Assembly (NCBI GenBank): GCA_964016885.1
Contig: OZ024757.1
Span: forward strand, 12,338,001 to 12,402,000
DNA: 64,000 nt
From: Eledone cirrhosa
Lineage: Eukaryota
Direction of reading: 5' to 3'
Made by a program: the position numbers and the translations under genes. Below are positions 1,303 through 30,760 of the stretch, piece by piece. The notes below the pieces were generated by a model. The model was given only the letters and a program-made list of their open reading frames with translations, ran no database searches and was not told the origin of the DNA. Each line of letters begins with the position of its first letter. Position 1 is the stretch's first letter.

Positions 1303-2719
1303 TACCATATATATACTGCATATACAGAGTATATGCTACATATAGACAATATATAAACTATATATATACTACATAGACATTATATATAACGTTGTCCAAG
1401 GGAATAGCTAAAACAACTTGGCACCAATGACATCATAGATCATCATTTAATGTCTACTTTCCCTGCTAGCAAGGGTGGGACAGGTCTTTACAAACCAGGG
1501 AGAAATGGGAGAACACATCACTCTTACATATGGTCCCACATTCTACTGAGTGTATTTTATTGTGGCACCAGTACTAAAGAGGTTGTCATGTCTTTTACAG
1601 AACTGAAGGGTCCTACCAAACCTTTGTTTGGCAAGAGAAGAAAGTTGTAAAGTATTTTCAAATGTGAATTATTTTTAAAAAAAGTCATAATTTCAACTGT
1701 CATGAAAGTACCATCAACAAATATTAAAGTTATAAAATTGTTTTCATTTACACATAAATATGGATATTTTGTCATAAATATGAATATAAACCAGTTAGTG
1801 TTTGTAAAATAACACATATAAACACATCAATCTTGTTTTGTTTTTCTTGCACTGATGGAGTCATAGGGGTGTCACTGTGGACATTTGAAGCTTGGTGGAG
1901 CCCTTCACTCACCAGGTTGGAACAGGTGATTTCTTCCAGAGAAGGAGAGAGAATGAGAGAGAGGAAGTGAGATAGAAATATAGAGAGGATGAACAGACCC
2001 CTGTGGTAGACTGGTACTTTTTTGTTATCAACCTTGAATGGATGAAAGGCAAAGTTGACCTCAGCAGGATTTAAACTCAGAGAGCAGAGAACCAGAACAA
2101 ATATGGCAGAAAGCATTCCATCCATTGTTTTATAGACTTTAAATAAATGTTTCTACTTTTAAATCAACCCCAGCAATTGGAAGAGAAAGAGGAATGCAAA
2201 TTAAATCGACCCCAGTGCATTACTGGTACTTTTTTAAACCTAGAACATAAAGGGCTGTAACTATATGACACAAAGAATGTTGTCTGATGCTCTACAGATT
2301 CTGCCAATCCACCACCCTCAGCAATAAAATAAGATTGTGTCTCTATAAGAAACCTTAATGACAAATATGAAGTAGAACTTTCTACAGGGTGTATTTGTGG
2401 ATTACAATACAAAACCTGAGAATAATTTCCAACATATTTCACCATAATAAATGTTCATTAATATATATTATTATTTCGTGGCAATTTTGAGATCATTAAT
2501 CCCTACCTGAACATCCCTAAATATCTGATCTATGTAGGTCATTTTCAGTCATCCCGCTAGGGTCTTACTATGTTTAGGTATCCACCACAGGAGCCAGCTC
2601 ATCAGGTCATCCATTCATCGGTAGGAATGTCTGGCATATCTTGTCCTTCGCTCCCTAGTTATTGTAGTAATCTTCAATCTATGGCAGTATACTTCTTCCA
2701 TTTGATAGAGTATATATAT

Positions 2720-3105
2720 ATAGATGCATATGAAGGATGACAGCTACATTAAAAGGTGCAGAGCACTAAATGTCGCTGGAAGCCATAAAAGCGATGACGC
2801 AGGACGGTGCCCTCTGGCATCATGCAGTAATACAAAAAACCTGACTTCACACGGCTACAAGCCGAAGCTGAAGCATATAGACAAATATGTCCCCATCCCC
2901 ACCCACTGCAAAGTGGTCAACAAAAAAGCACCCAGCCCCCAGAGTAAAGTGGCTGTGTAGGCACCATGGTAAAAAAAGTACCTAGCACACAGAGTAAATG
3001 AGGTTTTGTGTTAAGAAGGACATCAAGCTGTAGAAATCAAGCCAAAATCAGTTCCCGTACGAGCAAGACGAGGTCACATGACGTAAAACGGTGATGATGA
3101 TAAGT
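2720..3105 (+). mobile_element. RTE LINE 3' end remnant
   Basis: MKDDSYIKRCRAL motif, 3'UTR similar to 63400-63740, (GAT)n tail. Confidence 0.8.
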
Positions 3106-3199
3106 ATAAGATAAGGATTTTTCAAGCTTCACATCTTATATTCTTCCTTACAGAGTGTGTCTGTATATTTGTGTGTTTCACATTTCACAGTGATGGGGT

Positions 3200-4288
<1,089 letters not shown>

Positions 4289-4829
4289 ATTTCTAGCTAG
4301 AGATCTTTACATAAAGGATTCTCACTACTTTTACTTATACATTAAGAAATGTAGGTATCGTTAATAGATGCCATGTATTCTAATATACAAAGGTTCCATA
4401 AAAGACTGCAGAGGTCTGCTTTCTTCTACTACAAGTTGTAATGTAGCATTTAGTTGGTACAAGTAATAAGACATATGTCAGTGTAAGACTGATCTTGGAT
4501 GAAGAAAAAGCAAGTACTTATATATATGTGTGTGATTATTGTGGAATATACCACTATTATTATTGTTAAAGTGAGAGGAGCTCTATTCACAATAAAATCC
4601 TCAGCTCATAAATCAGACGAATAAGACTTCTATAGTTAAGGTTCTTGTTATTGGGGACAGTTCAGGTGACAAGAGAATTAATATCCATAATTACAAAAGA
4701 TGAAGGTTAATATATATACATATATATATATACAGACATACTGTGTATACGTATAAGAGAGAGTAATCGACGTATGTGTGTGTGTGTGTAGGTGTTGTAA
4801 TAAATCAAGATATTTTAGTTCAGATAGAA

Positions 4830-5240
4830 AAGTTCACAATGTTTGTGTTGTGGTGGAAAACGAAATAATACGTACTTTAGTTCTCAATACCAAATATAAA
4901 GTCAAGAAATGTTAGTAAAAACTAAATGTTCACTGATTTCTGATTAAAATAATATTTTCCTGTCCTGTAAAATGTTGAACAACCACTTCAATATTTAATA
5001 ATACAGGTGATAAAACAACAACTATAAGGTAAATAAGTCACCTTATGTTATTTACAAACATTAACGTCCACCTTAATATGAAATAATCACTATAAAAGAT
5101 AAAATTAGTTGAGGTTTAAGTTGTAACAATGGAGCTGATATAAATGGTAATTTTTCACCGTTTAGTTGACACCGGTGTCATGACTTAAAAGTCCCCTACA
5201 GAATTTAATACATTAAGAAACAACTTCCGTTATATGAATT
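4830..5240. promoter_or_regulatory. Conserved non-coding module upstream of ZF genes
   Basis: Similar to 30830-31280, reverse complement 40990-41430 and partial 55790-55910; core GGTGTCATACGTTAAAAGTCCC. Confidence 0.5.
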
Positions 5241-5241
5241 T

Positions 5242-5420
5242 GCAGAAAACCACTCGAAGGTAGCATGTGTAGTATGTATATTGATATTATACGCAGGTAT
5301 ATATGATACATGTATATTTATACCTGCGTATAATATCAATATACACACTACACATGCTACCTTCGGGTGGTTTTCTGCTAGCATGTGTAGTGTGTATATT
5401 GATATTATACGCAAGTATAT
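5242..5420. repeat. Foldback: ~60-bp inverted repeat followed by a third direct partial copy
   Basis: 5242-5301 is the reverse complement of 5319-5378; 5379-5420 repeats 5261-5301. Confidence 0.9.
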
Positions 5421-5476
5421 ATATATACATGTAGATATGTTACATCAAATAAAATCGTAATTTACAATATATAATT

Positions 5477-6620
5477 GTTTCTACGTTAGGCACAAGGCCA
5501 GCAAATAGTCAGTGTATTACTGGTACTTTATTTTATCGACCCCGTAAGGATGAAAGGCAAAGTTAACCTCGGCGGGATTTGAACTCAGAATGGCAAGGGC
5601 CGTAACTCTATGCGTCAAAGCATGGCGTCCGACTCTCTACAGATACTGCCAATCCACCGCCTTGACAATATATAATAAACAGAAATTGAACGAAGACTGT
5701 GTTACACTGTCTTATGTAATCAGTAACGTAATCCATGATACATTAAAAAAGACGATATTATATATAAACTGCATTAGGAGAAAATTAGTGACAGAAAATT
5801 AGTATGTTTATTGAAGTGATGGTCAACCGGAAGTGTTGAAATTTCAGAAATTTTAAAGAAGTGAATATTTAAATAAACAAAATATATTTAATTAACAGCC
5901 ACGAAATTTAGTAGATAAATTATGTAATATTCATTCATTATTTATTCAAAGTGGATTGGCAGTATCAGTAGAGGGTCGGATGCCATGCTTTCCAGCATAG
6001 TTACGTCCCTTTACGATCTGAGTTCAAATCCCGCTGAGGTTGACTTTGCCTTTCATCCTGACGGGGTCGATAAAATAAAGTACCAGTAATGCACTGGGTA
6101 ATTGCTGGCCTTGTGCCTAAAGTAGAAACAATTATTTATTCAAAGTAATCCAACTTATTTTACTAATGGGATAACAAATTATAAACCGTACGCAGTCCCG
6201 CGCTCCTTCTTTTATTATAGTTTAGATTCATACGTTCAATAGATATGCTAGTACTTTATTCAGATTTGAATAAATAACAATATTAATTTCATATAACTGT
6301 TCATATTAAACCAAAACACATTATTAATGGTAATAAAATATTTCAGTAATGGAAAAAAAAACGAATCAAACAACGAAAATATTTGTTTCTACTTTTTGGC
6401 ACAAGGTCAGCAATTATTCCAGTGTATTACTGGATTTGAACTCAGATCATAAAGGGAGGTAACTCTATGCTACAAATCATGGCGTCCAACGCTCTACCGA
6501 TACTGCCAATCCAACGAAAATAATTGTTTCTACTTTTTGGCACAAGGCCAGCAATTACCCAGTGCATTACTGGTACATTATTTTATCGACCCCGTAAGGA
6601 TGAAAGGCAAAGTCAACCTT
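5477..6620. mobile_element. Cluster of tRNA-derived SINEs, second family (5477-5663 -, 5950-6130 +, 6385-6515 -, 6525-6620 -)
   Basis: GGATTGGCAGTATC.GTAGAG...GAGTTCAAATCCCGC.GAGGT..ACTTTGCCTTTCATCC...GATAAAATAAAGTACCAGT; further copies near 2000-2320, 8437-8612, 27085, 44760-44950, 53745-54070, 57050-57520. Confidence 0.8.
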
Positions 6621-9378: not shown

Positions 9379-9385
<7 letters not shown>

Positions 9386-9862
9386 CGTAAAATAAGAAAA
9401 TTATAAAATTAACTTACTTACTAAAAAATCACTTCCAACTAATTAGTTTCTGGAATGGAGTAAATATATTTTCCGAAGAAACACATCGAAAATCATTCCG
9501 TCATCAGGAAAGTCTTTTTCCGTATAGGTCTCCAGGCATAGCGAGGACACTGGAAACTTATTAAAAAAATAATTCAGTGGAATGGAAATAGCAAAGCGTG
9601 GACTGGATTCCAAGCCATTGAAAAAATCACTGCCTCCTCGTCTGTGGCAAATTCAAAAAGAATCAATCACGTGACATCGAGGTCAATCAGTGGAAAGCGA
9701 GTGGTTATTAAGACAGCGGCCAGCTTACTACCATAGTAGCAGTCATGGCCAAATATTGCTCGACAAATGAATTGGAGATAATTATAAGGAATTTATATCT
9801 AGTAACATTTATATACACACAGATGCATATCAATGCTAGCAAATATATAGGTTTTGTCTATA
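9379..9862 (-). mobile_element. Non-coding hammerhead-bearing unit (retrozyme/pLTR-like) in a (TA)n tract
   Basis: Flanked by TA repeats; contains the HHR at 9431-9513; permuted relative at 18670-18840. Confidence 0.7.
9431..9513 (-). ncRNA. Type I hammerhead ribozyme motif
   Basis: ACTTTC-CTGATGA-C GGAATG...CATTCC A-GAAA-CTAATTAG-TT-GGAAGT; palindromic stem III (AACTAATTAGTT); C/A mismatch at the base of stem II. Confidence 0.75.
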
Positions 9863-9909
9863 TATATGTAATATGTATATACACATGGGTTTGTATGATT
9901 GTGTATAGA

Positions 9910-11980
9910 AGATTATATTAATAAAAGGAATTCCAACGTTGTCTGATTTACTCGTTTTATTTACAATACTTTAAAATTTTTAATGGTATTAGAATGAAAT
10001 AGTATGGTGGAATATTAAATGTTAAGTGTTAATTGAACAAGTACTTTCATGCTTTCGCAATCTTCAGGTTCATAATGTGTGGTGACAGTCAAGTTTGCAA
10101 TTTTCAACTGTAATGAGATGGATAAATGTTGTGCCTTATATACAGTGAAAAGTGGCTCCAGAATGCTAAATCTTGCAAACTGTATTTTGACCAATTGGTG
10201 TGTAATTTCACTGTATTACTAAAGCTGATTGGTCTAGGTGTCACCGTTGGTTGAACATGTCTAACGACTACTAATTGACCCTATCCAAAGCATAAATTGT
10301 TTTGCTATTTTTAGAAATGATGAAAATAGCATTTTCTAGTAATCATCACCATCAACATCACTTTTATTATTATTATTATTATTGTTGTTGTTGTTGTTAG
10401 TGGTCGTAGTCATAGTCATAGTAGGATTAAATACCCATTATTATTGTTCATTTAGCTTGGGTTGAATTTATCAATAAAATTCTTTTCTTTGATTTTTCTC
10501 TTAATTTCACTTGGGCTGTGTAATTTGTAGAATGGGAATATTATAAATATTCCCTGATCACATGTTGCTAGATGGTTACTTAGGGGTATCTGACGGACAT
10601 TTGGGTTTCTGATTTGCTGTTGGTGTACCCGTGCACGTTGCGATAGTGCATTTCCAGTTTGACCGACATATAGTTCTTCACAATTCGGGCATTTAATGCA
10701 GTAAATTAGATTTCTGCTTTTGCAGTTCATATTTGCATTTGGGAATATTTTTCCAGTTTTTGTTTTCATATATTGACCGGCGTGTATGGATTGACATGTG
10801 CCACATCGACTATCATTGCATTTAGATACAGTGAATGATTGGTCTTTGCTTTTGTTAGTAATTGCTTCAAATATTTTGGCTGTCTTTTACTAAGAGTCAA
10901 AGATCGATCTGTGATTAAGCCTTTTAATTCATTACTTTGAGCAATGATGGGTAAGTTTGCTTTGGCAGTGTTGAAGATATTCTGGTGACATGGGTTGTGT
11001 GTCATTATAAATGGTATGACCAGTTCTTGGTTTCTTCTTCCTTGGGTTGTCCTAAGTTGTTGTATAGGTATTTTTATAACCCGCTGTATACCATTTTCTA
11101 TAAGTAGAGATGGGTATTTTTGTTTGAGCAAAAATTCTCTTAGTTCTGTTAGGCGTTTGTACCTGGTATTCGTATCTTCTACAATGGTACAAATTCTTCT
11201 GGCTAGGCAGTATGGGATGTTGCGTTTTGTATGAGGTGGATGTCACGACTTAAAATTCAGATATTGATGGGTGTCTGTGTGTTTATAATATATATCCGTG
11301 GTAATGGTGGTGTCGTTTTTGATTATCATTATATCTAGGAATGGTAATTTGGTAGTATTCATCTCTTTTGTGAATTGGAGAGATGGGTGTAGGTTATTCA
11401 GGAGGATATTGAACTCATCCAGAGTATCTAGAGATGTTGTCCAGATGATGAAACAGTCGTCAAGGTATCTCTTCCAAGATTTTTCAAAGTACTATATTTT
11501 TCCTCTATTTCTTGATAGAGTTGTTGTTCTAAGTATCCCATTACAGAGTTCGCGTAAACAGGAGCAAACTTCGTTCCCATCGCTGTGCCTCTAATTTTGA
11601 TTTAATTCTTTCCATTGAAAAAGTGTTGTTTTCCAGAATAAGTTTAACTGCGTCTAATATAAATGGGGCTGTGAATCTGATGGGAATCACTTCTCTATGT
11701 TTTTCCACACGGTATTTAACCGCCTTTATTCCTAAATCATGTGTAATGTTGGTGTAAAGGCTTACTACATCAAAACTAAGTAGAAGTGAATTCGTTTCCG
11801 TGGTTTTGGGAAGCTGGGACAGGAAGTCGATATCATCCCGGATGTGAATACATAGTGGTTTCAAAATAAAGTCAACAAAATTGCTTAGACGGTGGGTGGG
11901 GCAAAAACTTAAAACTTAGACCTATTATAGCTGGTCCAACATACCCCACCCACCGTCTAAGCAATTTTGTTGACATTATT
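9910..11980 (-). mobile_element. Penelope-like retroelement, 5'-truncated and frameshifted (RT + GIY-YIG endonuclease), with a short 5' inversion
   Basis: LLSFDVVSLYTNI (11541-11864), RYLDDCFII (~11443-11470), NLIYCIKCPNCEELYVGQT...R..HQ (10452-10769); LKLRPIIAGP..PTHRLSNFVDII inverted on the plus strand at ~11908-11980. Confidence 0.93.
10034..10072 (-). ncRNA. Minimal type I hammerhead ribozyme in the Penelope 3' region
   Basis: TGAAC-CTGAAGA-T TGC GAAA GCA T-GAAA-GTAC-TT-GTTCA; palindromic AAGTACTT stem III. Confidence 0.85.
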
Positions 11981-12597
11981 TTGCTGTCTTTCTAATTTTG
12001 AGAAGGAAATCAGCAGTGTGGGCACAAAGAAGAAGTGGTTTGTCAGGCCCCGGTATTTAACTATCTTTCTCTTCTCTCTATTGCATGTAGTAAAGCCTGG
12101 GTTTGTGGCCGTAGGGAAAATGTTGGAGGCAGAGAATGATCCAACCCATGCTAAACCTCCAACTAAAGCTGATACTTGTCTTTTTCAGCTGTGGAGATTA
12201 GAGACATGTGAAATGGTGTGTCTTGCTTAAGGACACAATGTACCTCCCTAACTGACAATTGAAAACATGATATTACCATATGTTGTATGACTTCACTATA
12301 CAATATATATGTGTTTGTATACCTATATATAATATATATTTGTGTATACATTGTCTCATTCCATGAGAGTAACTTGGTCAGTCTATGAACTCCTCATCTG
12401 ACCCTTCTATATGTATATACATGTTTGTCAGTGTGTGTGTACATATGTATATAGAATATTGTCACAACTACTATATACACCACATATACACTATATATAA
12501 TATTGTCCAATATATATAGACTATATGTCATGTTGTCCAAGGGAAAGGCTGATATTGATCAGCACCAGTGACATTACAACTATTATATACACTATAT

Positions 12598-13984: not shown

Positions 13985-14400
13985 AAACGGAAAAAATGAA
14001 ACGAAATTTCATTTCCCACTCTTACTATGGCTGTTACTTAAATATTAGTATGTATACGTACATACATATATGTATACAGACGTACAGTAGTATGTATATA
14101 TATATATACATACATGCACACATATATATATGTACGTATGGATTCACCAAACATTCATTACAATGCTCGGTGTGTTTGTAAACAAACATCCCGAATTAAG
14201 CCGTACAGTGTCTAACAACAATCGTTGCTCGTTTGTTCAGCACTGACAAAGGAACGCTGTACTAGTTTCAAGCTTGTTAGCTATCGTCAACAACCTTCCT
14301 GCCGATATGCAAATTGGGCTACTCAGCCGTTAATATGCATAAGGAAATTATATACTTTCGGACCATCTGGCAGGAAGGTATACGTTGCAATTTGTATATA
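13985..14400 (-). mobile_element. Diverged copy of the 466-bp hammerhead unit with its promoter-like segment inverted
   Basis: Minus strand GTTG-TTGACGA-TAGC TAACAA GCTT-GAAA-CTAG-TA-CAGCG at 14251-14299; plus strand ATATGCAAAT...TCAGCCGTTAAT...TTATATAC at 14305-14388. Confidence 0.8.
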
Positions 14401-14854: not shown

Positions 14855-14922
<68 letters not shown>

Positions 14923-15149
14923 AAGTATGCATGTATACGTACATACATATATGTATACAGACGTACAGTAGCGTGCACATATATATATATATATATACAT
15001 ATGCATACAGGTACACATACATATATGCACGTATCAGTTTAGCGGCGCTAACGTCGCTTTGTTCGTTTGTAAACAAACTGAACAGCCTGAATTTATGCCA
15101 TACGGTGTTAAGGCAACCACGTCACCTTTTTGTTCAACACTGACACAGG

Positions 15150-15194
15150 AACGATGTACTAGTTTCAAGCTTGTTAGCTATCATCAGCACCGTT
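15150..15194 (-). ncRNA. Minimal type I hammerhead ribozyme
   Basis: AACGGTG-CTGATGA-T AGC TAACAA GCT T-GAAA-CTAG-TA-CATCGTT. Confidence 0.9.
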
Positions 15195-15466
15195 TACCCA
15201 TCTGCCAGATAGTTGAACGTTCGAAAGTATATACTTTCCTTATGAAAATTAACGGCTGAGCAGCCTAATTTGCATATTGAGTGAGTTAAATCGGTCAGGC
15301 ATACCGAAAACGATAAATTGAAACAAAATGAAAACGAAATTTCATTTCTCACTCTTAGTATGGCACTCAATTTAACTCACTCAATATGCAAATTAGGCTG
15401 CTCAGCCGTTAATTTTCATAAGGAAAGTATATACTTTCGAACGTTCAACTATCTGGCAGCTGGGTA

Positions 15467-15511
15467 AACGGTGCTGATGATAGCTAACAAGCTTGAAACT
15501 TGTACATCGTT
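15467..15511 (+). ncRNA. Minimal type I hammerhead ribozyme (loop III variant CTTG)
   Basis: Same motif with GAAACTTGTA, which breaks the ACTAGT palindrome. Confidence 0.85.
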
Positions 15512-15851
15512 CCTGTGTCAGTGTTGAACAAAAAGGTGACGTGGTTGCCTTAACACCGTATGGCATAAATTCAGGCTGTTCAGTTTGTTTACAAACGAAC
15601 AAAGCGACGTTAGCGCCGCTAAACTGATACGTGCATATATGTATGTGTACCTGTATGCATATGTATATATATATGTATATATATATATATATGTGCATGC
15701 TACTGTACGTCTGTATACATATATGTATGTACGTATACATGCATACTTACATTTAAGTAAGTGCCATACTAAGAGTGAGAAATGAAATTTCGTTTTCATT
15801 TTGTTTCAATTTATCGTTTTCGGTATGCCTGACCGATTTAACTCACTCAAT

Positions 15852-15899
15852 ATGCAAATTAGGCTGCTCAGCCGTTAATTTTCATAAGGAAAGTATATA
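15852..15899 (+). promoter_or_regulatory. Octamer + conserved box + TATA promoter-like block (present in each unit)
   Basis: ATGCAAAT 15852-15859, TCAGCCGTTAATTTTCATA, TATATA 15894-15899; conserved in the diverged units at 14307 and 17069. Confidence 0.5.
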
Positions 15900-15932
15900 C
15901 TTTCGAACGTTCAACTATCTGGCAGATGGGTA

Positions 15933-15977
15933 AACGGTGCTGATGATAGCTAACAAGCTTGAAACTAGTACATCGTT
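15933..15977 (+). ncRNA. Minimal type I hammerhead ribozyme
   Basis: AACGGTG-CTGATGA-TAGC TAACAA GCTT-GAAA-CTAG-TA-CATCGTT; predicted GUA cleavage after 15970. Confidence 0.9.
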
Positions 15978-16398
15978 CCTGTGTCAGTGTTGAACAAAAA
16001 GGTGACGTGGTTGCCTTAACACCGTATGGCATAAATTCAGGCTGTTCAGTTTGTTTACAAACGAACAAAGCGACGTTAGCGCCGCTAAACTGATACGTGC
16101 ATATATGTATGTGTACCTGTATGCATATGTATATATATATGTATATATATATATATATGTGCATGCTACTGTACGTCTGTATACATATATGTATGTACGT
16201 ATACATGCATACTTACATTTAAGTAAGTGCCATACTAAGAGTGAGAAATGAAATTTCGTTTTCATTTTGTTTCAATTTATCGTTTTCGGTATGCCTGACC
16301 GATTTAACTCACTCAATATGCAAATTAGGCTGCTCAGCCGTTAATTTTCATAAGGAAAGTATATACTTTCGAACGTTCAACTATCTGGCAGATGGGTA

Positions 16399-16443
16399 AA
16401 CGGTGCTGATGATAGCTAACAAGCTTGAAACTAGTACATCGTT
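16399..16443 (+). ncRNA. Minimal type I hammerhead ribozyme
   Basis: Identical to 15933-15977. Confidence 0.9.
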
Positions 16444-16759
16444 CCTGTGTCAGTGTTGAACAAAAAGGTGACGTGGTTGCCTTAACACCGTATGGCATAA
16501 ATTCAGGCTGTTCAGTTTGTTTACAAACGAACAAAGCGACGTTAGCGCCGCTAAACTGATACGTGCATATATGTATGTGTACCTGTATGCATATGTATAT
16601 ATATATGTATATATATATATATATATGTGCATGCTACTGTACGTCTGTATACATATATGTATGTACGTATACATGCATACTTACATTTAAGTAAGTGCCA
16701 TACTAAGAGTGAGAAATGAAATTTCGTTTTCATTTTGTTTCTATATATATATATATATG

Positions 16760-16832: not shown

Positions 16833-17421
16833 AATAGCTGGACACTCACAGTAAAGTGACCAGTGAAAAACTCGGTACATCTACATATGTATACGTGTGT
16901 GTATTCATATGCATACTAGTATTTCAGTATACATATGTGGATGTACATTTTTAACTTAATTGTTTAAGCGTCAGTCATACAAAAGTGAGTTACAAACGAA
17001 ACGAAATTTAATTTCGTTTCGTTATTTGTTTTTATCGTCTCCGTTGAACCGGTACGTACTCACGCTCTATGCAAATTAGTCTGCCCACTACTAATTTTCA
17101 TAGAAAAAGCATATAACGATATGTGCTTTTACGATTCTCTAGAGAGGCCGGAAGATAGGTAAATGTTGCTGATGAGATGTAACAACATCGAAACTAGTTC
17201 AATATTCCTTGTCTGGCTTTCTGGAGAATAGAGGAAAGGTGTTTCCTCAAAAACCAGTATGACTCTAAAAACCGGTTTGTCTGTGTGTTTACATACAGAA
17301 TAGCTGGACACTCACAGTAAAGTGACCAGTGAAAAACTCGGTACATCTACATATGTATACGTGTGTGTATTCATATGCATACTAGTATTTCAGTATACAT
17401 ATGTGGATGTACATTTTTAAC

Positions 17422-17428
<7 letters not shown>
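16833..17428 (+). mobile_element. Diverged subfamily of the 466-bp hammerhead unit (about 1.3 units, ~130-bp terminal direct repeat)
   Basis: ATAGCTGGACACTCAC at 16834 and 17300 (period 466); shares TATGCAAATTAG.CTGC and TAATTTTCATA with the adjacent array. Confidence 0.85.
17162..17206 (+). ncRNA. Minimal type I hammerhead ribozyme (covariant stems)
   Basis: AATGTTG-CTGATGA-GATG TAACAA CATC-GAAA-CTAG-TT-CAATATT. Confidence 0.9.
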
Positions 17429-17459
<31 letters not shown>

Positions 17460-17822
17460 GTTACATATGAAAATATATATGGGTTACATATGAAAAACTT
17501 TGTCCTCATCAGTGGCCATCCAACCGTCGTAGGCATTTCGTCGCATTAAAGGCCATATGGTGCGAGCAACGGCTAAAAAAAAGTCGTTCGGACACGTAAA
17601 TAAAGGGGACGCTAGGGTAAACAAACAAAATGGTTTAAGCAGCAGAAAGAGAGGGAGAAGGAAACAAGTCCCAGATTTCTATGAATATAAATTCGGTGGA
17701 ATCGTGAACGAGAGAATAAAGACCATCAAACCTGGTTGAAATGTGAGCAAGGAAGGAATTTCGCACAGGTCTAACGGGAGGAAGAAGGGGTCTGGTCTGC
17801 GAATTCGGTAAACATAAGTTCT

Positions 17823-17871
<49 letters not shown>

Positions 17872-18596: not shown

Positions 18597-18617
18597 CTAT
18601 ATATATATATATATATA

Positions 18618-18845
18618 TATGAAAGACGTAAAATAAGAAAATTATAAAAATTAACTTACTTACAAAAAAGGAGTGAAATATTAGTAAGTAAGTTAATTTT
18701 TATAATTTTCTTATTTTACGTCTTTCATATAATTGTTCTGCATCCCCTTGCATTGAACCACAATGTTACTAAGACAAAACCTATATATTTGCTAGCATAG
18801 GTATGCATCTGTATATATATGTTGGTAGATATACTAATTCTTTAT
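18618..18845 (+). mobile_element. Permuted fragment of the 9379-9862 unit with an inverted tail
   Basis: 18618-18663 is the reverse complement of 18684-18730; 18771-18843 matches the reverse complement of 9790-9860. Confidence 0.8.
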
Positions 18846-19596
18846 TTATATATATATATATATGTGTATGTATATATACACAGATATATATATATATGTG
18901 TGTGTGTGTACCCCTCATTCCGTTTTTAAAAATACACTCGTTGAACACGTCATCCCCGTGGCAACACGTGGTTCAAATCATTCGCAGATTTGCATTTGCT
19001 GTATAAACACAGATGGTTATCTTCTTCTCCTTTGGTGAACATCAAAGAATTTAACTGCTGTGATTTACGGATTAATAGGTGAAATATATTTCTTACTTAA
19101 AGAAATATATACAAAGGCGATTAATCATTTTAAATGGTATCTATATTTGAAGTTCTAGTTAAACTTTAATTAGTTACCTACCTAGCTATGTGTGCCTACA
19201 TTCTTTACAAATTATTCCCTGTGATTGTTTCATGTATTTATTTTAATAATAATAATAATGAAATATTGTGTACAGTGCTCAGGTGCACTACAACTCATCA
19301 AAAAGTGTATGTATAGTACATAGGGTAATGTACAAACGTCAGGAAAATTAACAGTGCATGAGTCATGATACACACGTGTGCATGTGTATGGAAGGGGTAC
19401 ATCAGGTGTAGTTTTGGAGTATTTCGGGAAGCATGAGTGTCTTAAAGGATGCAGTTTTATATATATATATGTCAATCTATTTCTAGTTGATAAGTAATGC
19501 ACGGATCTAATCTTTGAGCTTATTCTACGGTGGATATGGCGCATGTCTCTCAGACATGACAACCCTTAATTTTAATTTTGTATATATATATATATA

Positions 19597-30003: not shown

Positions 30004-30704
30004 GTGTAAGGAATTCTTTTACAATGGAATTAGCTCGAAAGGAAATATTCCTGAGCCGTGTATAAAAGTAATATATATGAGTAATATATATGTTGAAACA
30101 GATACCAACATATCTGTATTTATATTGCAAAAGAAAGTTAGCCAGACTGAAGAATATTAATTATTATACCACAGTTCGTCCACATCGATTTAAAATAATA
30201 ATAATAATAAATCGACAAAAACTAGTTGTGCTGCCAAATGGCAATGATGTTTATACATATTTAAATTTCAAAGTCAAACCTGTTCAGTAGATAAGTTTAA
30301 ACCTCAAAATCCAAACATGTTTCGAGATGGATATAAGTGTAGGAATATCATGCCACTGCTCTCCTCAGTAAACATCCAGAGACAATTGATAAGCTTCACT
30401 TCTAAATACTTTAAAAGACTGTGTGACGCACATGGGTTCACAGATTCAGGCTAGTCTCATAACCGTACTGCTAGAAATAACAGTCGTATATATGAGGCGA
30501 AATTTAGCTCGTATATGTATAAACATCATTGCCATTTGGCAGCACAACTAGTTTTTGTCGATTTATTATTATTATTATTTTAAATCGATGTGGACGAACT
30601 GTGGTATAATAATTAATATTCTTCAGTCTGGCTAACTTTCTTTTGCAATATAAATACAGATATGTTGGTATCTGTTTCAACATATATATTACTCATATAT
30701 ATTA

Positions 30705-30710
<6 letters not shown>
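30001..30710 (-). mobile_element. ~510-bp hammerhead-bearing unit plus ~200-bp inverted tail, inserted in a TA site
   Basis: 30061-30260 is the reverse complement of 30512-30711; AATT(T)AGCTCG at both ends of the unit; absent from the paralogous site at ~41495-41510. Confidence 0.85.
30308..30373 (-). ncRNA. Type I hammerhead ribozyme motif
   Basis: GTTTA-CTGAGGA-GAG...CTC-GAAA-CATG-TT-TGGAT; palindromic AACATGTT; stem I weak (G-U rich). Confidence 0.7.

Positions 30711-30760
<50 letters not shown>

Follow-up and report, generated by a model that had tools for sequence, protein, structure and literature searches.

A candidate octamer-and-TATA promoter carried within a 466-nt hammerhead ribozyme unit of Eledone cirrhosa

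The question raised by this locus is whether a block combining an octamer with a TATA-like box, just upstream of a hammerhead ribozyme motif, constitutes a promoter that a repeated unit carries within itself, and, if so, which polymerase would read it. The window, i.e., the whole 64,000-nt stretch analyzed here, is AT-rich animal DNA (GC content of 28 to 46%) with C2H2 zinc-finger arrays, reverse-transcriptase remnants, and many (TA)n tracts. Within it, the octamer block and the hammerhead motif are parts of a 466-nt tandem unit (GC content of 35 to 36%) that occurs as subfamilies A, B, and C (Table 1). Sequence comparison makes it roughly an even call that the 49-base block at 15851 to 15899 is the unit's own compact RNA polymerase II (Pol II) promoter, composed of two facing octamer/POU sites plus a TATA box and present in every cleavage-to-cleavage monomer.

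Table 1. Positions of the block, the hammerhead, the unit copies, and the neighboring Penelope-like element in the window
Feature	Position	Strand	Remarks
Forward octamer/POU-type site TATGCAAATTA, 5' arm of dyad	15851..15861	+	First 10 nt identical in A, B, and C
Inner spacer of dyad, holding the "PSE-like" 5' half	15862..15875	+	Short stem-loop in A and C; other sequence, 1 nt shorter, in B
Inverted octamer arm with one mismatch	15876..15886	-	Versus A, 11/11 in B and 9/11 in C
TATA-like hexamer (15894-15899), center of 16-bp palindrome	15889..15904	+	8 nt past inverted octamer in A, B, and C
5' strand of extended stem I, including GGCAG (15921)	15909..15939	+	Constrained fold; pairs with 15971-15995
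Type I hammerhead core	15940..15970	+	CUGAUGA, stem II, GAAA, short palindromic stem III; structural descriptor search
3' strand of stem I; first bases of predicted monomer	15971..15995	+	Constrained fold
Palindrome and T-runs where inserted copies end in (TA)n	16246..16275	+	Hairpin in A, B, and C
Subfamily A array	15370..16741	+	~3 units of 466 nt, 99% identity
Inverted subfamily A copy	14920..15375	-	~1 monomer; octamer at 15268, hammerhead at 15187; ends in (TA)32
Subfamily B	16833..17427	+	~1.3 units; block at 17068-17116; hammerhead core from 17169
Subfamily C body	~13986..14303	-	Degenerate hammerhead core (14290); ~74% identical to A
Inverted subfamily C piece	14305..14388	+	Holds block; stops just short of ribozyme core
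Broken, 5'-truncated Penelope-like element	~9380-11983	-	RT motif, Cys-rich linker, GIY-YIG; small 5' inversion; ends in (TA)28

The unit fits the non-LTR retrozymes by virtue of its hammerhead tandem, its Penelope-like insertion pattern, and the Penelope-like element nearby, its cleavage and circles being only predicted. Type I hammerheads stand in consecutive units (cores at 15474, 15940, and 16406 on the plus strand and at 15187 on the minus strand), as in retrozymes. The unit is non-coding (no Pfam family in the six cluster frames of at least 95 aa that were scanned) and has no LTR. Subfamilies A and B share the 466-nt period despite ~65% identity and many indels, which may indicate a constraint on monomer length.

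A structural search of both strands of the window returned eight type I hammerhead-like motifs: six in this family, one in the Penelope-like element, and a weak one at 30368, which we dismissed because its stems are weak and it sits between long inverted repeats. Those repeats (30073 to 30260 and 30513 to 30712) form a perfect inverted repeat of ~190 to 200 bp flanking a 250-bp core that contains the match, a fold-back or MITE-like arrangement. At the gathering score, Rfam reported neither a hammerhead nor an snRNA anywhere in the window; below that score, the Hammerhead_HH9 model matched copy B (E = 2.9e-6) and the A copies (E = 0.57), and the list by E value consisted mostly of TA-rich microRNA models, taken as chance. 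A tRNA-like head at 1236 to 1293 on the minus strand (Rfam, 30.5 bits) is probably part of a SINE. The palindromic stem III is intact in two of the three direct A copies; a change at 15501 breaks it in copy 1. The short palindromic form of this stem has been described, in the part of the source drawn on here, as acting in dimers (PMC4209133). The predicted cut follows GUA at 15970, and the constrained fold preserves stem I pairing in subfamily B with different letters. Elsewhere, a hammerhead-pattern scan gave no loci in viral contigs and eight in metagenome contigs, none of them like the unit by BLAST; an octamer lay within 260 nt upstream in one of the eight, a locus that by eye is not a hammerhead. 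An exact 27-mer search of genome contigs returned nothing.

The block lies within the unit, from ~120 to ~70 nt ahead of the predicted cut; a monomer running from one cut to the next would therefore always include the copy that belongs to the following unit. The motifs listed in the earlier note are all in place: the exact octamer ATGCAAAT at 15852 to 15859, TCAGCCGTTAATTTTCATA at 15868 to 15886, and TATATA at 15894 to 15899, which begins 27 nt (start to start) ahead of GGCAG at 15921, itself 50 nt before the predicted cut. The middle motif had been likened to a proximal sequence element (PSE), a description that did not survive comparison of the subfamilies: its conserved part is the second arm of the dyad, an inverted one-mismatch octamer reading TATGAAAATTA in A and B (plus-strand letters TAATTTTCATA) and TATGCATATTA in C, and its PSE-like 5' half is lost in B. 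Across the spacer stretch 15861 to 15875, identity to A is 9/15 in B and 13/15 in C.

Conservation of the same block had also been claimed at 14307 and 17069, and it is partial at both. At 17069, in subfamily B, the octamer and TAATTTTCATA are retained, but the TCAGCCG half is replaced, CATATAA stands in place of TATATA, and the GGCAG equivalent follows at 40 nt. At 14307, in subfamily C, 44 of 49 nt are retained and the TATA-like box stands 20 nt before GGCAG, but the block belongs to an inverted piece ending at 14388, and the ribozyme of that copy is on the minus strand; this rules it out as a promoter for an intact downstream ribozyme. Internally, the spacing of the block is fixed, with octamer starts 26, 25, and 26 nt apart in A, B, and C and then 8 nt to the TATA-like box, while the distance from TATA to the ribozyme is free (46 nt to the hammerhead core in A and 59 nt in B), a combination that favors a promoter. 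The TATA-to-GGCAG distance likewise varies (27, 40, and 20 nt in A, B, and C), which identifies GGCAG as a ribozyme stem rather than a fixed start. Transcription had been proposed to begin at GGCAG 15921; we dismissed GGCAG as a conserved start on account of this variable distance and of its place in a paired strand of stem I.

The same distances bear on the type of promoter. An octamer-PSE-TATA layout of the U6 kind had been suggested, which would make the block a type 3 promoter for Pol III with its start at GGCAG 15921, and we find this extremely unlikely. The separation of box and TATA is 7 nt as against 15 to 19 bp in human type 3 promoters, among which, according to the portion of the source drawn on here, U6 is inactivated by 5-bp changes (PMC7949045), and the position of the PSE is occupied by the octamer. 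The stretch of the block that does lie at the 15- to 19-bp PSE distance is its least conserved part, the distances being human and possibly not those of the host. The T4 runs noted earlier near 16259 to 16268 are present (at 16259 and 16265) and are joined by others at 16283 and 16345 in the A unit, by a T5 run in B, and by a T6 run in C, all of them ahead of the next ribozyme. Such T4 to T6 runs would halt Pol III after ~340 nt, short of the following block and ribozyme, and yet the arrays hold whole monomers; together with the 7-nt spacer, this makes Pol III unlikely. In favor of a U6-type start are the placement of TATATA 27 nt ahead of a G in subfamily A, the position of inserted copies' ends beside T-runs, and the compact human H1 promoter, which is described in parts of two sources as packing octamer, PSE, and TATA into ~100 bp (PMC7949045, PMC3499247). 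The idea of a promoter inside the unit thus stands in part: the location of the block within the monomer, its above-background identity, its fixed spacing, and the newt precedent (see below) uphold it, while the 7-nt spacer, the T-runs, and the variable TATA-to-GGCAG distance go against its U6-type version.

A second alternative keeps Pol II but posits an snRNA-type promoter like that of the newt, in which an octamer acts with a host-specific PSE bound by SNAPc and transcription starts in or just before stem I. The newt satellite 2 precedent (PMC2220036, in part) speaks for it, as do the exact octamer in all six block copies and a stretch of 21 nt that ends at 15885 and is followed, after 8 nt, by the TATA-like box, matching the fly PSEA (1 to 21)/PSEB (30 to 37) geometry. 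The portion of the source used for the fly geometry also gives a PSE center 50 to 55 bp upstream and fast evolution of PSE sequences among animals (PMC1761439); applied to the block, that distance would place the start near 15925 to 15930. In the same portion, insects conserve the 5' half of the PSE (PMC1761439), whereas the block conserves the 3' half, which is the inverted octamer, and the invariant letters of the fly element are absent in a by-eye comparison. Searches of the open-access literature brought up no mollusc PSE. We regard this alternative as quite unlikely.

How far the block stands out from the rest of the unit depends on the control. Of the 10 exact octamers in the window, 6 belong to the family and 4 to the other 60.5 kb (~0.03 per 466 nt). 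The succession of octamer, inverted octamer (at most one mismatch), and TATA-like hexamer follows 6/6 family octamers and 0/4 others, a pattern derived from the family itself, in which four of the six are near-identical copies. One further exact octamer, at 18988 in a minus-strand stretch (18920 to 19000) that is single in the window, is followed by E-box- and CRE-like words. Between A and B, the block is identical at 39/49 positions (80%) compared to 213/340 (63%) for the rest outside the ribozyme (Fisher P = 0.013). Between A and C, the values are 44/49 (90%) and 220/305 (72%) (Fisher P = 0.004), counts that merge the minus-strand C body with the inverted piece and omit the spacer segment before the octamer, of which C covers 10 of 40 positions. 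No difference was found between the block and the ribozyme (53/71 in B and 61/71 in C; P ~0.35). Identity above the unit background and equal to that of the ribozyme favors the promoter reading, as far as three independent sequences (A, B, and C) can carry the comparison. Counting against it, when 20,000 permutations were scored by their most conserved 49-nt window at any position, 44% (B) and 17% (C) of them reached the values of the block, which is not significant; B has CATATAA; and TATA-like hexamers are common in the window (10% per eight positions). The three-way identical 10-nt run at the octamer, expected 0.4 times, ties with a TA-rich run. Both octamer arms are retained in full between A and B (21/21 positions at a background of 63%), a result with a probability of 5e-5 if positions are independent and the arms had not been chosen post hoc.

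The main rival concerns RNA rather than DNA. The block could be retained for the structure that it forms in RNA or single-stranded DNA, or as a hairpin by which the circular RNA binds a protein, in which case the octamer would be a chance word and the arrays would be transcribed by read-through from host promoters. The dyad indeed forms a hairpin in each subfamily (plus-strand RNA z scores of -1.5, -4.5, and -2.4 in A, B, and C, where equally good folds came from 34, 0, and 12 of 500 shuffles), and the TATA region, a 16-bp palindrome in A, is remade in B as an 11-bp hairpin with other letters, as selection on RNA would do. These folds count against the promoter reading. The unit is, moreover, a chain of hairpins in which pairing is kept between subfamilies, and ~3% of 466-nt stretches here hold an exact octamer by chance. 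Four other hairpins (the 3' palindrome, stem II, and two body hairpins) preserve their pairing while their letters change across subfamilies, as is typical of RNA structure. This does not apply to the octamer arms: they are letter-identical between A and B, including the same unpaired position, and in the inverted arm of C one octamer mismatch is exchanged for another with no net gain of pairs, so that no compensatory change appears across A, B, and C; in addition, the TATA region of C has no stable fold. Because letters and unpaired position are unchanged where other hairpins keep only their pairing, this comparison of three sequences suggests that the arms are read as sequence. We consider a role as a hairpin alone possible but doubtful.

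The two roles need not be separate. An invertebrate retrozyme might, independently of the newt, have turned two of its own RNA hairpins into a 50-bp octamer promoter, the dyad then serving both in DNA, as a double POU site plus TATA, and in the circular RNA, as stem-loops. We think this speculative and unlikely; if true, no other self-renewing cassette of this kind, with promoter and ribozyme together, would be as small, and an animal group with few genetic tools would have a compact promoter ready for use.

Public sequencing runs give a further view of block conservation. Four of the 24 listed runs (X1, X11, X20, and X23) were compared with 16165 to 16590 at an 80% threshold; no RNA run is among the listed holders, so the comparison is silent on expression. 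In X11, a run of unrecorded kind represented by 81 contigs, summed contig depth, which is not copy number, peaked at the 3' palindrome (2442 to 4324), the block (1246 and 1213), and the ribozyme (2747 to 5540). Flanking values were 251 to 524 just upstream of the block and 310 to 644 just downstream, and depth fell to 65 to 491 in the trough after the ribozyme. The X11 variant table, which uses a 5% threshold and covers differences away from contig ends, has no row in 16316 to 16345; C-type letters appear at 16346 (seven contigs) and 16348 (six contigs). X20 yielded six pieces, among them a 226-nt contig from 16316 with seven substitutions and two gaps relative to the unit; the six listed of these nine differences fall at 16483 to 16514, beyond the block and the ribozyme. 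The depth peak on the block in X11 and the position of the X20 differences count for the promoter. Since the block peak is about one-fourth as high as those of the ribozyme and the 3' palindrome, however, the block of many relatives must be too diverged for the 80% threshold or absent, which tells against universal conservation.

The same X20 contig (16316 to 16532), and X11 as well, combines an A-type block and ribozyme with C-type letters at 16489 to 16497, which suggests mosaics of subfamilies. Of the five X1 pieces, one is an identical contig of 470 nt and the others are short and weak. As a separate observation, the unit occurs in 20 listed runs under 16 labels; raw reads of one such label (X23) gave no match, and in another a single identical contig was present at low depth. 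An abundant molecule that spread between samples as a contaminant seems a likelier cause here than a wide host range.

The insertion pattern of the unit resembles that of Penelope-like elements. Insertions end at 16741 (A) and ~13986 (C, minus strand), and X11 has contigs whose loose ends, at 16261 and 16280, continue as TA repeats; there are two sites, ~55 nt apart, at which copies give way to (TA)n, and the 5' side of copies carries inverted arms. The palindrome with T-runs at this end is likely a recognition or priming end for reverse transcription. The Penelope-like element itself lies 2 kb from the cluster and is recognizable by its GIY-YIG domain (E = 3.2e-7 at 10455 to 10886 in the Pfam scan). 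Its relatives include full-length elements with RT plus GIY-YIG, and the nearest named relatives of its protein, at 55% identity, come from records that bear the label of a bivalve gill symbiont. Noncoding pieces of the same Penelope 3' end occur at 18617 to 18845; two of these, 53 to 59 nt long, form an inverted pair beside (TA)n. Also bounded by (TA)n tracts is a single-copy stretch at 17460 to 17825 (minus strand), which ends in CTGATGA with no complete hammerhead and in two frames gave no Pfam match.

In its 3' region, the Penelope-like element carries a minimal type I hammerhead (10034 to 10072, position 10067) preceded by CCAAT at 10232 and 10198 and by TATATAA at 10142. The order matches that of the unit, with upstream boxes and a TATA-like motif preceding the ribozyme motif, and counts for the promoter, the motifs having been picked post hoc. 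Conversely, the octamer dyad was not found ahead of this hammerhead or at three related Penelope loci, which counts against it. The three loci come from genome contigs (L009, L010, and L011), with none in viral contigs; TATATA lies 27 nt before a downstream hammerhead motif in one of them (L010), L009 has no descriptor match, and the L011 match is on the opposite strand, the dyad being absent upstream of both hammerhead-like matches among the three. As an aside, the Penelope-like elements at L009 (3480 to 3875) and L010 (1640 to 2021) are in bacterial assemblies, likely as host DNA, and have CRE-like words upstream of hammerhead-like motifs, that of L009 seen by eye.

It might also be argued that the block is a relic, inherited from a repeat end that a Penelope-like ancestor carried, with selection lost and the apparent conservation being noise among three sequences. 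The permutation controls, which were not significant, are in keeping with this, as is the proposal, in part of a preprint, that retrozymes stem from Penelope repeat ends (bioRxiv 10.64898/2026.07.22.740005). The intact octamer arms and the X11 depth peak argue otherwise, and the unit shows no significant sequence link to the Penelope element of the window, with no likeness to its 3' region except TA-rich sequence. We judge a relic very unlikely.

If the block is a compact Pol II promoter, POU proteins and TBP would bind it, and transcription would start somewhere downstream of TATA and ahead of the ribozyme core, without a fixed base, since the cut would set the RNA end. Pol II would pass through the T-runs into the following units, and the hammerheads, probably paired as dimers given their short palindromic stem III, would free 466-nt monomers that circularize. 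A Penelope-type reverse transcriptase plus endonuclease would then copy monomers into (TA)n sites as tandem or inverted arrays. With the block situated between one cut and the next, any new array longer than one unit would again have a promoter upstream.

Animal retrozymes have been reported to be abundantly expressed in most tissues. In the literature surveyed, the transcription of retrozymes or hammerhead satellites in animals is documented only for the newt (Pol II, snRNA type) and for a schistosome satellite (Pol III). Having a defined 49-bp candidate whose arms can be mutated allows the question to be put to the test in another phylum and a role as DNA site to be told apart from one as RNA hairpin. 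Should it be a promoter, it would show an upstream promoter surviving retroposition, given that the ribozyme cut rather than the start site sets the monomer; should it be a hairpin only, the unit is an ordinary retrozyme.

Searches of the main texts of the open-access literature gave no account of this unit or of an inverted-octamer-plus-TATA block; a giant squid paper counts 235 hammerhead-1 matches with no detail. Metazoan non-LTR retrozymes, as described in parts of two sources, resemble the unit in being noncoding, tandem, low in GC, and likely mobilized by Penelope, with one type I hammerhead per unit; they differ in length (~200 to 400 nt reported, compared to 466 nt here) and in that the present unit has an internal TA-rich hairpin (PMC7229834; bioRxiv 10.64898/2026.07.22.740005). 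The searched parts of the same two sources do not discuss a retrozyme promoter, one mentioning T7 only and the other giving no matches. Penelope repeat ends, in the portions of the sources used here, share with the unit a short palindromic helix III, partial tandems, an inverted 5' arm, extension at one end, and microsatellite targets (PMC4209133; bioRxiv 10.1101/2021.04.23.441226). The unit differs in having no RT or GIY-YIG ORF and in an end extension of ~55 nt, as opposed to 30 to 40 nt in Penelope (bioRxiv 10.1101/2021.04.23.441226); it also has an octamer dyad where the Penelope-like element of the window has CCAAT and TATA.

The type 3 Pol III genes U6, 7SK, and H1 likewise have an octamer and TATA upstream of a short noncoding RNA, within ~100 bp for H1 in the portions consulted (PMC7949045, PMC3499247), but the unit has no conserved PSE 15 to 19 bp from TATA, has the octamer at the PSE position, and has T-runs in the transcript that it would need. 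The plant LTR retrozyme NbRZ1 offers a promoter within a ribozyme-bearing repeat (PMC12029980) and differs in its type III hammerhead, LTR structure, and plant host; the consulted part of that work suggests Pol II and mapped the start only after inactivation of the ribozyme, because the ribozyme cuts off the 5' piece and so hides the start (PMC12029980). For satellites, part of another source gives an snRNA promoter for Pol II in newt satellite 2 and a Pol III promoter in the schistosome (PMC2220036). The newt satellite also resembles the present unit in build, being a tandem unit with a type I hammerhead, a short stem III, and an internal promoter, used by Pol II. Coats, Zhang, and Epstein reportedly tested that promoter in oocytes in 1994 and found an octamer plus PSE of the snRNA type. 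The present unit, known from sequence and from an invertebrate host, differs in having an inverted octamer pair with a TATA-like box and no conserved PSE. Newt satellite 2 and NbRZ1 are thus precedents that, by analogy, count for the promoter reading, and they mean that a promoter carried within a hammerhead unit is already known.
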